DNA of 64,000 nucleotides from NCBI RefSeq assembly GCF_058153355.1, contig NZ_CM177019.1; one strand, written 5' to 3'. Position 1 is the first letter of the stretch, and each line of letters opens with the position of its first letter. The notes below the pieces were generated by a model. That model had not been told where the DNA came from. It worked only from the letters and a program-made list of their open reading frames with translations, and made no database searches. The position numbers were made by a program, and so were the translations under genes. This document shows, piece by piece, positions 4,529 through 56,390 of the stretch.

Positions 4529-5248
4529 ATGAAAAACGACGTCATCTCACCGGAATTTGATGAAAACGGCCGCCCACTGCGCCGTATCCGTAGTTTTGTG
4601 CGCCGCCAGGGGCGACTGACCAAAGGCCAGGAACATGCGCTGGAAAACTACTGGCCGGTGATGGGCGTTGAGTTCAGCGAAGATATGCTGGATTTCCCTG
4701 CGCTTTTTGGCCGTGAAGCGCCAGTGACGCTTGAGATTGGTTTCGGCATGGGGGCGTCGCTGGTGGCAATGGCTAAAGATCGCCCTGAGCAGGACTTCCT
4801 CGGCATTGAAGTGCATTCACCAGGCGTTGGTGCGTGCCTGTCTTCTGCGCATGAAGAGGGCTTAAGCAACCTGCGCGTGATGTGTCACGATGCGGTTGAA
4901 GTGCTACACAAAATGATTCCTGACAATTCATTGCGCATGGTACAGCTCTTTTTCCCTGACCCGTGGCACAAAGCGCGCCATAATAAACGCCGTATCGTTC
5001 AGGTGCCGTTTGCCGAACTGGTAAAAAGCAAACTGCAACTGGGGGGCGTATTCCATATGGCGACCGACTGGGAACCTTATGCGGAACATATGCTTGAAGT
5101 GATGTCTTCGATTGACGGTTATAAAAACCTGTCAGAGAGCAATGATTACGTACCGCGCCCGGCATCACGTCCGGTGACGAAATTTGAACAACGTGGTCAT
5201 CGTCTTGGTCACGGAGTATGGGACTTAATGTTCGAGAGGGTGAAATAA
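4529..5248 (+). CDS. trmB: tRNA (guanine46-N7)-methyltransferase
   Basis: 239 aa [31 protein letters not shown]... Confidence 0.9.
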
Positions 5249-40450: not shown

Positions 40451-40576
40451 CATACTCTAAATAATTCGAGTTGCAGGAAGGCGACAAGAGAGTGAATCCC
40501 CAGGAGCTTACATAAGTAAGTGACTGGGGTGAGCGAACGCAGACGCAGCACATGCAACTTGAAGTATGACGAGTAT
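40451..40576. repeat. ERIC/IRU intergenic repeat between pgk and fbaA
   Basis: Contains gtgaatccccaggagcttacataagtaagtgactggggtgagcg; reverse complement of 53764..53888. Confidence 0.85.
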
Positions 40577-52279: not shown

Positions 52280-52482
52280 TATTTGCTCCATAAAACGCAA
52301 TCAAAATGAGGGTATTTGCGCTTACGGTGAGCTTTTTACGTGGGTTTGTCGCCAGCAAAAAAAATGCATTCAGACGTCGTTTTTTGCCGCCTGAGATTTG
52401 TCTATTTTGTGATGTGATTCAAGGAATACAAAAAGAACTGGAGGTGATGCCTGGTATGTATTACCAGGCATTATTTGATGGA

Positions 52483-53376
52483 TTATTCCTGACGAAGAAC
52501 TTTGTGACCATAATCGAGCAACGCATCAGTGACTTTACGCATCATGCGGCTTTCAGGAGCAAAGCGGTGCCAGTAGAGCATCCGGCGTTGAAATAGCCCT
52601 GGCGTTAAGTCAATCAGTTCGCCGCTGGCCAGTTCTTTCTCGATTTGCAGATGTGGGATCATACAGCAGGTGGTCCCCTGACGAGCAAGTTGCACGAACG
52701 CTTCTGAAGAATTAACGATATGGCAGGGTACGCTGCCTGGAGGCAGATCAAAGTTTTGCTGCAAAAAGGCCTGGTGCATATCATCAAGATGGTCAAAGGC
52801 GACCACTGGCGCTTTCAGTAATGCCGAACGCGTTACGCCGTTAGGGAAATATTTTTCGGCGAACGGTTTTGAGCTGACGAACAGATAGTCGAGCGCACCG
52901 AGCTTATCGACAAGACAACTCGGTAGCGCCTGATGTTGAATACTCACCGCGCCGACCACTTCGCCGCGACGCAGACGTTCCTGAGTGCGGGTTTCATCTT
53001 CTACCTGCAAGTTGAGGCGGATAGGCGAATCAGCTAACACAGGAGCCAGCGCCGGAAGCAACCACGTCGCCAGACTGTCAGCGTTGACCGCCAGTGAAAG
53101 CAGCAGCGGAGTTGAACCGGTTTGTTCATCGCCCAGCCACTCTTCTTCCAGTAACTCCACCTGGCGTAGCAGTGCCAGCAGTTTTTGCCCTTGTTCCGTC
53201 GGGCGCGGCGGTACGGTACGCACCAACAGCGGCTGCCCGAACATATTTTCCAGTTGCTTAATGCGCTGTGAGACGGCTGATTGTGTAATGCACAGCTTTT
53301 GTGCCGCGCGCTCAAATCCTCGTTCACGTATCACCGCATCCAGTGCCTGTAATGTTCTGTAGTCCGGGCGTTTCAT
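52483..53376 (-). CDS. argP: LysR-family regulator ArgP/IciA
   Basis: 297 aa from [43 protein letters not shown]. Confidence 0.9.
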
Positions 53377-53516
53377 TGCTGTTGTCTGCTCCTGGTAAAT
53401 GCTTTTTCCTGCACTATGACACAATTTTGCGTCAGGTTGCATATACCGAAGCCGTCGGCGGGTACATTTGTATCAGTGGTTAAACACGCAGCTTAAAAGA
53501 TCAGGGATTTGCGCTA

Positions 53517-53747
53517 TTGCATTTCGCTCAGCGAGTTCGCGCCCTGGTTGTGTTGAATGGCGTGGCGTTATTGCCTCAATTTGCCTGTAAACAGGGGCTT
53601 GCCAACGGTGAACTGGTGCGCCTGTTCGCACCGTGGAGCGGCATACCCAGACCGTTGTATGCTTTATTTGCCGGGCGAAAGGGGATGCCCGCCATTGCGC
53701 GATATTTTATGGATGAGTTAACCACGCGGCTTGCCAACGGGGTCTGA
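53517..53747 (+). pseudogene. yqfE: LysR-family regulator C-terminal remnant (yqfE-like)
   Basis: 76-aa ORF resembling a LysR effector-domain C-terminus, no HTH-bearing N-terminus. Confidence 0.4.
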
Positions 53748-53763
53748 ATCGCTTTTTTTGTAT

Positions 53764-53888
53764 ATACTCGTCATACTTCAAGTTGCATGTGCTGCGTCTG
53801 CGTTCGCTCACCCCAGTCACTTACTTCTGTAAGCTCCTGGGGATTCACTCTCTTGTCGCCTCCCTGCAACTCGAATTATTTAGAGTAT
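53764..53888. repeat. ERIC/IRU intergenic repeat upstream of rpiA, inverted relative to 40451..40576
   Basis: Near-identical reverse complement of the pgk–fbaA ERIC. Confidence 0.85.
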
Positions 53889-53925
53889 AATGCGAGTGAA
53901 ATTTCATACCACAGGCGAAACGATC

Positions 53926-54585
53926 ATGACGCAGGATGAATTGAAAAAAGCAGTAGGATGGGCGGCACTTCAGTATGTTCAGCCCGGCACCATTGTTGGT
54001 GTAGGTACAGGTTCCACCGCCGCACACTTTATTGACGCGCTCGGCACGATGAAAGGCCAGATTGAAGGGGCCGTTTCCAGTTCGGATGCGTCCACTGAAA
54101 AACTGAAAAGCCTCGGCATTCACGTTTTTGATCTCAACGAAGTCGACAGCCTTGGCATCTACGTCGACGGTGCAGATGAAATCAACGGCCACATGCAGAT
54201 GATCAAAGGCGGCGGCGCGGCGCTGACCCGTGAAAAAATCATTGCTTCGGTTGCGGAAAAATTTATCTGTATTGCAGACGCTTCTAAGCAGGTTGATATT
54301 CTGGGCAAATTCCCGCTGCCAGTAGAAGTTATCCCGATGGCACGTAGTGCAGTGGCGCGCCAGCTGGTGAAACTGGGCGGTCGTCCGGAATACCGCCAGG
54401 GCGTGGTGACCGATAACGGCAACGTGATCCTCGACGTCCACGGCATGGAAATCCTTGACCCAATAGCGATGGAAAACGCCATAAATGCGATTCCGGGCGT
54501 GGTGACTGTTGGCTTATTTGCTAACCGTGGCGCGGACGTTGCGCTGATTGGCACACCTGACGGTGTCAAAACCATTGTGAAATGA
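53926..54585 (+). CDS. rpiA: Ribose-5-phosphate isomerase A
   Basis: 219 aa from [32 protein letters not shown]. Confidence 0.95.
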
Positions 54586-56239: not shown

Positions 56240-56390
56240 AGGCAGCATAGGGCTACAACGGTAAAGCCCTCACCGAAGCGAGGGCTTGAAGGAGAAGGGT
56301 TATGATGCGACTCGTCATCATACTGATTGTACTGTTACTCATAAGTTTCCCAGCTTATTAACAGTCAGTCACAGGGGAGGAGCAATCCTC
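56240..56390 (-). ncRNA. sibC: SibC antisense sRNA (antitoxin to ibsC); boundaries approximate
   Basis: Inferred from known ibs/sib architecture; ends not determinable from sequence. Confidence 0.35.
56302..56361 (+). CDS. ibsC: Type I toxin IbsC (19-aa hydrophobic peptide)
   Basis: MMRLVIILIVLLLISFPAY; expected location between serA and ygfA. Confidence 0.6.
   Translation: MMRLVIILIVLLLISFPAY

Follow-up and report, generated by a model that had tools for sequence, protein, structure and literature searches.

The DNA between argP and rpiA in the window (the whole analysed stretch of 64,000 nt) contains a short ORF related to LysR-type regulators, which raises the question of whether it is an old, decayed duplicate lying beside the intact LysR-family gene argP, as a preliminary description of this DNA held, or the remnant of something else. 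The region is collinear with the E. coli chromosome in the order scpA, argP, short ORF, rpiA, serA, and a megablast search with 53380–53930 found matches in 5,425 of 5,426 complete E. coli genomes. The nearest genome over this segment is that of E. coli 2020CK-00188 (99.5% by megablast), in which the part corresponding to 53433–53766, referred to below as the scar, is 100% identical to the window. The preliminary description correctly placed the ORF next to an intact argP and correctly took an ERIC element as its boundary; the element is real. The features of the locus are as follows:

52483–53376, minus strand: argP (iciA), intact LysR-family regulator gene (297-aa ORF; argP is annotated in the collinear genomes)
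53433–53472: scar-specific spacer of 40 bp, from the point where homology to block-bearing genomes ends (53432) as far as the azoreductase fragment with its stop codon
53473–53554, minus strand: 3' fragment of an FMN-dependent NADH-azoreductase-like gene, last 26 codons and stop (by homology to positions 2577–2654 of locus L003 from strain CB6837)
53517–53747, plus strand: annotated 76-aa ORF, yqfE (b2915) in K-12, a chimera with TTG start and TGA stop
53556–53747, plus strand: last 63 codons, with the stop, of the gene for a 298-aa LysR-type regulator; only this part of yqfE truly derives from LysR (tblastn; Pfam)
53763–53889, no strand: ERIC element, a 127-bp imperfect palindrome with terminal inverted repeats (53763–53787 and 53865–53889) and a central inverted repeat
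53886–53891, plus strand: TATAAT hexamer, probable –10 element of rpiA, 34 nt upstream of the rpiA ATG
53926–54585, plus strand: rpiA, the right flank (ORF list; annotation of collinear genomes)

The ORF has a known counterpart. A 231-bp pseudogene, yqfE (b2915), is annotated in MG1655 at the equivalent place between rpiA and argP, and the K-12 gene shares with the window ORF its position, its strand (that of rpiA), its length and about 97% of its nucleotides. Its identification as K-12 yqfE in the preliminary description is therefore sustained by annotation and alignment alike, and the feature itself is already annotated and ordinary. The two copies are not the same in every respect: K-12 yqfE begins with ATG and is not followed by an ERIC, whereas the window ORF begins with TTG, differs at four synonymous positions in the LysR part and has the ERIC after it. 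The same protein (WP_000545308.1, PGAP) is encoded in a K-12-like strain, in ST131 and in 2020CK-00188, under the label “LysR substrate-binding domain-containing protein.” PGAP applies this label in many sampled genomes, and the stub should not be taken for such a protein, nor for an argP paralogue. Literature on yqfE or b2915 comprises incidental mentions only, namely a deletion list for strain DGF-298 and a CsrA-binding prediction, the yqfE–argP spacer being on a list of computational CsrA-binding candidates (PMC8144298).

Only part of a LysR-type protein is present. A Pfam scan of the 76-aa ORF could have found no similarity to the LysR effector domain; instead it returned a single family, PF03466 (LysR_substrate; E 6.5e-7; 29.4 bits, the cut-off being 28). 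Residues 15–72 of the ORF correspond to profile positions 151–208 of 209, the extreme C-terminus only, so that the complete two-lobed effector domain (about 209 positions) is not encoded, and the same scan found no HTH_1 domain (PF00126) in 53517–53747. The earlier reading of the ORF as a C-terminal LysR fragment devoid of an HTH domain thus proved accurate. Homology to the effector domain is evident also from the intact 298-aa LysR protein of strain CB6837 (WP_000568123.1; orthologues in E. whittamii and Escherichia sp. E1V33), residues 236–298 of which equal residues 14–76 of the window ORF. In a tblastn search of 52400–54000 with this protein, residues 236–298 matched 53556–53744 with 63/63 identity and no frameshift, and the identity is 100% in nucleotides too. 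Residues 1–235 gave only weak, non-significant matches in this interval, all but one of them on the argP strand. Mapping a full-length LysR protein in this way, as the preliminary description had proposed, therefore revealed the truncation it expected and none of the frameshifts.

The remainder of the ORF comes from another gene. Window positions 53555–53766, comprising the last 63 LysR codons and 19 bp beyond the gene, are 100% identical to L003 4001–4212, while 53477–53554 match L003 2577–2654 at 82% nucleotide identity, that is, the 3' end of an azoreductase-like gene on the minus strand. The alignment thus places the deletion junction directly at 53554|53555. Since the ORF starts at 53517, its codons 1–13 lie antisense to the azoreductase-like fragment and only codons 14–76 derive from the LysR C-terminus, a point missed in the preliminary description. 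The start of the remnant had been put at 53443, a coordinate with no biological meaning, being merely the end of an over-extended argP ORF. Translated on the minus strand, the azoreductase fragment reads TQPGRELAERNAIAQIPDLLSCVFNH before its stop in the window against TQPGRELAEQNALAQIPDLITHVFNHYL before the stop at the intact C-terminus: 21 of the last 26 residues are identical, and the stop then comes two codons early. With merely 26 codons left, this piece is a fragment and not a gene. The stretch missing at the junction is 1,346 bp long in CB6837, and the sequences at its ends, GGTTGGGTT and GCTTGGCGG, show an imperfect 9-bp similarity that would fit a microhomology-associated deletion. Derivation of the azoreductase fragment from a paralogue elsewhere in the genome was considered and rejected, as each genome has a single match, always at the argP–rpiA locus.

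The intact arrangement is preserved in strain CB6837, in which four genes are annotated between argP and rpiA (L003 903–4193):

441 aa: ferredoxin/ferric-reductase-like protein with Ferric_reduct, FAD_binding and NAD_binding domains, encoded on one strand with the BhsA-like and azoreductase-like proteins
86 aa: YdgH/BhsA/McbA-like protein, encoded on the strand of the reductase-like gene
209 aa: FMN-dependent NADH-azoreductase-like protein with a Flavodoxin_2 domain (PF02525), encoded on the strand of the reductase-like gene
298 aa: LysR regulator WP_000568123.1 with HTH_1 and complete LysR_substrate domains, divergent from the other three genes

The regulator carries HTH_1 at residues 4–63 and PF03466 positions 2–208. 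It thus possesses the winged helix-turn-helix (wHTH, PF00126), the full effector domain and a divergent pairing with the azoreductase-like operon, none of which is found in the window. The spacing from the LysR stop to rpiA is 55 bp in the block-bearing arrangement, and the distance to rpiA is the same in scar strains lacking the ERIC. The block was found in 233–249 of the 5,426 complete E. coli genomes, and 240 genomes match the azoreductase-like gene instead of the scar, so the block is present in about 4.5% of E. coli genomes. IS1 insertions within it, seen in a few E. coli strains, are secondary.

A scan of one genome per species revealed the block in relatives as well. The order argP, block, rpiA, serA is shared by E. 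whittamii, Escherichia sp. E1V33 and Escherichia sp. MOD1-EC7003, each with at least one degraded block gene. LysR is 96% identical in E. whittamii and 94% identical in E1V33, and the ferredoxin-reductase gene is fragmented in both; in MOD1-EC7003 LysR is frameshifted but nearly full-length, and the ferredoxin-reductase and BhsA-like genes are truncated. A Pseudocitrobacter MAG contains three of the four genes in the same order, the azoreductase gene being absent, with LysR 72%, ArgP 95% and RpiA 95% identical. From the LysR stop to the ATG of rpiA the spacer keeps one length, 55 bp, across the four aligned lineages, the ERIC-carrying MOD1-EC7003 being outside this alignment. The LysR–rpiA adjacency and the constant spacer in relatives indicate that the adjacency is older than Escherichia and that the stub derives from the block and not the block from the stub. 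With its ferric-reductase-like flavoprotein of the membrane, its periplasmic BhsA-like protein, its azoreductase-like flavoprotein and its divergent LysR, the intact block (L003; relatives L004–L007, L017 and L018) looks like a redox or electrophile-stress module, whose decay has reached different stages in different Escherichia lineages.

The intact LysR protein also shows how distant the ancestor is from ArgP. The remnant aligns with ArgP in BLASTP over 39 aa at 28% identity (E 0.005 for a single comparison), and the intact ancestor over 36 aa at 28%. Against NCBIfam models the ancestor scores 172 bits with PRK14997, 151 with YafC and 125 with AaeR, and 54–56 with the ArgP models. The PRK14997, YafC and AaeR families are its best matches, but the scores are far under their equivalog cut-offs of 380–470 bits, so the ancestor is a family member without a name. 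The best solved structures for it in a PDB search are 3szp/3t1b (123 bits) and 3hhg (102 bits), deposited only as “LysR family” regulators, which we take to be AphB of Vibrio cholerae and CrgA of Neisseria, respectively. By profile scores and structural matches the intact LysR groups with YafC/AaeR/AphB-type regulators and not with ArgP, and neither it nor the remnant belongs to the ArgP/LysG subfamily. The subfamily scores and the weak alignment with ArgP indicate that the nearness of the remnant to argP is coincidental at the subfamily level; to judge from sequence, argP borders the scar on its left but did not give rise to the remnant.

The scar itself is the common state of E. coli. It was detected directly in 5,153–5,176 of the 5,426 complete genomes (about 95%), the spacer and the azoreductase fragment occurring together in 5,176. 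In an alignment of the junction from K-12, MG1655, ST131, O111, O157:H7 and five other strains, every strain that retains the junction has the same one, N96 having lost it by a secondary deletion. One junction shared across lineages points to one deletion event. The scar has since been damaged further, as is directly visible in the aligned alleles. A deletion of 45 bp (15 codons) between GCCT repeats is present in O111, O157:H7, ST648 and strain 181.1, and was found in 18 of 60 evenly spaced scar-match rows, that is, in about 30% of genomes. The N96 scar has an 89-bp deletion, the O157:H7 scar a TAG at codon 5, and one large group of scar alleles carries P268L together with Y270H. The frame opens with TTG in the window, O157 and N96 but with ATG in K-12, and PGAP calls no ORF at the scar in the O157 and ST648 genomes examined. 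In strain WB61 (L019 700–830) the junction lies elsewhere, at L003 947|3924, and about 90 LysR codons and 45 nt of the ferredoxin-reductase 3' end are retained. This junction is unique among the 5,426 genomes and differs from the common one, indicating a second, independent loss of the block. The locus is a small, clean case of staged gene loss, with intact block, common scar, secondary deletions and independent deletion.

It is very probable, on this evidence, that yqfE is the scar of a deletion, without regulator function, and not a decayed copy of argP. In the ancestral state the reductase-like, BhsA/YdgH-like and azoreductase-like genes would have lain on one strand between argP and rpiA, with the 298-aa LysR gene transcribed divergently from these three and ending 55 bp short of rpiA. 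On the line of descent to about 95% of today's E. coli, a deletion of about 1.35 kb would then have taken LysR codons 1–235, the divergent promoter region and the 5' portion of the azoreductase-like gene, so that what was left of both genes, their 3' ends, became joined tail to tail; the reductase-like and BhsA-like genes are gone as well. A chance start codon antisense to the azoreductase fragment opens the 76-codon frame into the LysR C-terminus that is annotated as yqfE, and the DNA of the stub is probably drifting. The predicted product would have neither the wHTH nor the linker helix, would miss about 70% of the effector-binding domain and consequently could not act as a LysR regulator; a residual function is probably absent. 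The pseudogene status of the stub had already been flagged in K-12, and what is added here is its origin as a tail-to-tail deletion scar of a redox/stress gene block. The locus could serve as an E. coli lineage marker and as a teaching example of a deletion that creates an apparent ORF.

Further observations concern the left half of the scar. The 40-bp spacer (53433–53472) has no match in any allele of the block (L003–L007, L017 and L018), including the ferredoxin-reductase and BhsA-like genes. Window positions 52545–53432 match argP of CB6837 (L003) and 56 bp upstream of it, and homology with the block-bearing genomes stops at 53432. Beyond these 56 bp, therefore, scar-bearing and block-bearing haplotypes have different regulatory DNA in front of argP. 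The azoreductase fragment diverges by 10–18% from all block alleles found, and the adjoining LysR part by 0–2% from the E. coli alleles, a disparity between the two halves that a simple one-step history does not predict. The scar may stem from a divergent allele that is no longer seen, recombination having made its right half uniform with other alleles, or the blocks now present in E. coli may have been imported.

The alternative that survives best, though we regard it as unlikely, is that the stub has been kept as cis-regulatory DNA for rpiA (promoter-upstream elements) or for argP, longer deletions being selected against. The common scar and the WB61 deletion, two independent events, both stop within the 3' end of LysR, and in each of them 190 bp or more remain in front of rpiA. 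The TATAAT hexamer at 53886–53891 is probably the rpiA –10 element, as suggested by its position 34 nt before the rpiA ATG and by TTTTTGTATATAAT, which is invariant from E. coli to Pseudocitrobacter despite the fact that the neighbouring LysR gene is just 72% identical there. With a –10 element at this distance from the ATG, a –35 or UP region, if there is one, would reach into the final codons of LysR.

The ERIC of the window bears directly on this proposal. Compared with the K-12 sequence (GTATATAATGCG), 122 bp are inserted in the window, flanked on either side by TATA, and the inserted element has the properties of an ERIC: a palindrome of about 127 bp with a central inverted repeat, multi-copy, intergenic, and present in some strains and absent from others. 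It lies directly upstream of TATAAT, so that no native upstream sequence adjoins the probable –10 element of rpiA any longer. By displacing the sequence upstream of TATAAT, the last LysR codons included, by 122 bp in the window and in 41 other genomes, the ERIC speaks against the stub being strictly required in cis. The internal deletions of 45 and 89 bp are likewise tolerated, and polymorphism is not lower in the half of the stub near rpiA. On its gene-level deletion list, the genome-reduced, viable E. coli DGF-298 lacks yqfE through mscS and keeps rpiA (PMC10652928). No terminator-like structure was predicted by RNA folding of 53700–53775, which covers the LysR 3' end and a T-run (z = 0.86), and an Rfam scan found no RNA family in the stub. 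A promoter and terminator scan of 53300–53960 returned nothing, the argP and rpiA promoters being among its misses. A constraint in cis would concern, at most, the last few tens of bases of the stub.

A broader doubt is that the deletion scar may not be inert, in that either the 76-aa ORF is translated and selected where it is preserved, or 190 bp are needed in cis for the nearly essential rpiA. The second possibility, if true, would explain why two independent deletions both end inside the LysR 3' end. Synonymous-only differences between the main full-length scar alleles are compatible with a stub that is not inert, yet recombination with intact alleles accounts for them better, and we consider an active stub improbable.

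Horizontal acquisition of the block at the argP–rpiA site, followed by loss of most of it with only the stub left behind, appears a little less probable still. Such an origin agrees with the rarity of the block in E. coli, and the divergence of the scar azoreductase fragment from every extant allele points to at least two allele lineages and to import by recombination. The LysR–rpiA adjacency, however, occurs also in three other Escherichia lineages and in the Pseudocitrobacter MAG with its much more divergent LysR, and the block is not flanked by mobility genes or repeats, the only IS1 copies being secondary insertions in a few strains. The block is thus probably ancestral rather than acquired, and the stub is a deletion remnant under either history.

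It is very improbable that the chimeric ORF encodes a functional small protein, for example a LysR fragment that disturbs the oligomerisation of other LysR proteins. An identical WP_000545308.1 is encoded in strains as distant as K-12, ST131 and the window strain, and the full-length scar alleles of these three differ in the LysR part at seven positions, all synonymous, with a probability of about 6e-5 for 7/7 if the changes arose neutrally in the scar. Six of the seven variants, however, are present also in intact alleles (AHM21C2872I, 2014C-3075 and E. whittamii); the simplest reading is therefore that they originated in intact genes and entered scar haplotypes by homologous recombination. 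Recombination of this kind, as judged from the shared variants, can explain the synonymous-only pattern and does not call for selection on the stub. Codon changes confined to the scar were counted in anchored pairwise alignments, N96 codons 236–261 being excluded. They comprise six non-synonymous and six synonymous changes, against 4:19 in intact alleles and a neutral expectation of about 3:1. The scar-only ratio is under the neutral expectation and lies between it and that of intact alleles, neither comparison being significant (p about 0.05–0.06; Fisher p 0.06 against intact alleles). This suggests relaxed constraint, the numbers being small. The other lesions of the scar are difficult to reconcile with a small protein: the 15-codon deletion in about 30% of genomes, the stop at codon 5 in O157:H7, the 89 bp missing from N96, P268L/Y270H in a large allele group and the variation between ATG and TTG starts. 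The ORF is, moreover, dispensable in DGF-298 (PMC10652928), and its 63 LysR residues, the tail of a two-lobed domain, would be unlikely to fold alone.

The least credible account is an old tandem duplicate of argP that decayed through point mutations and frameshifts, the origin favoured in the preliminary description: an intact LysR-family gene does adjoin the stub and shares a weak, family-level similarity with it, but the ancestor resembles PRK14997, YafC and AaeR and the structures 3szp/3t1b and 3hhg more than ArgP (172 against 56 bits at best) and aligns with ArgP over a short segment only, the truncation is one clean junction without frameshifts, the stub is divergent to argP and part of another gene block, and the intact gene is still at the exact same place in about 240 E. 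coli genomes and full-length or frameshifted in relatives.

The ERIC is an ordinary member of its kind, notable only for where it stands, directly before the probable –10 element of rpiA, and for how seldom it occurs there. ERIC core copies occupy a median of four places per E. coli genome, and the core matches sequences that we take to be those of the PCR primers ERIC1R and ERIC2. At the argP–rpiA site, an ERIC is present in just 42 of 5,426 E. coli genomes, K-12 being without it. The same element at the same site, with one mismatch, is found in the window (53700–53930), in N96 (L015 2680–2908) and in the cryptic-clade strain MOD1-EC7003 (L007 6850–7080), so this insertion either dates far back or was passed from one lineage to another by recombination. 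A second ERIC core in the window, at 40492–40535, has one mismatch to the core at 53805–53848. The Rfam family V_AS5 (Vibrio RNA AS5, RF02818) matches the ERIC at 53767–53890 on the minus strand over the full model length with 42 bits (E 1e-7), which is below the gathering threshold of 96; this similarity suggests that the Vibrio “antisense RNA” family V_AS5 may be an ERIC-like repeat. Farther downstream, ibsC, encoding an Ibs-family type I toxin, is located just 3' of serA in collinear annotated genomes, and its position in the window, projected from L001 5435–5494, would be approximately 56314–56373.
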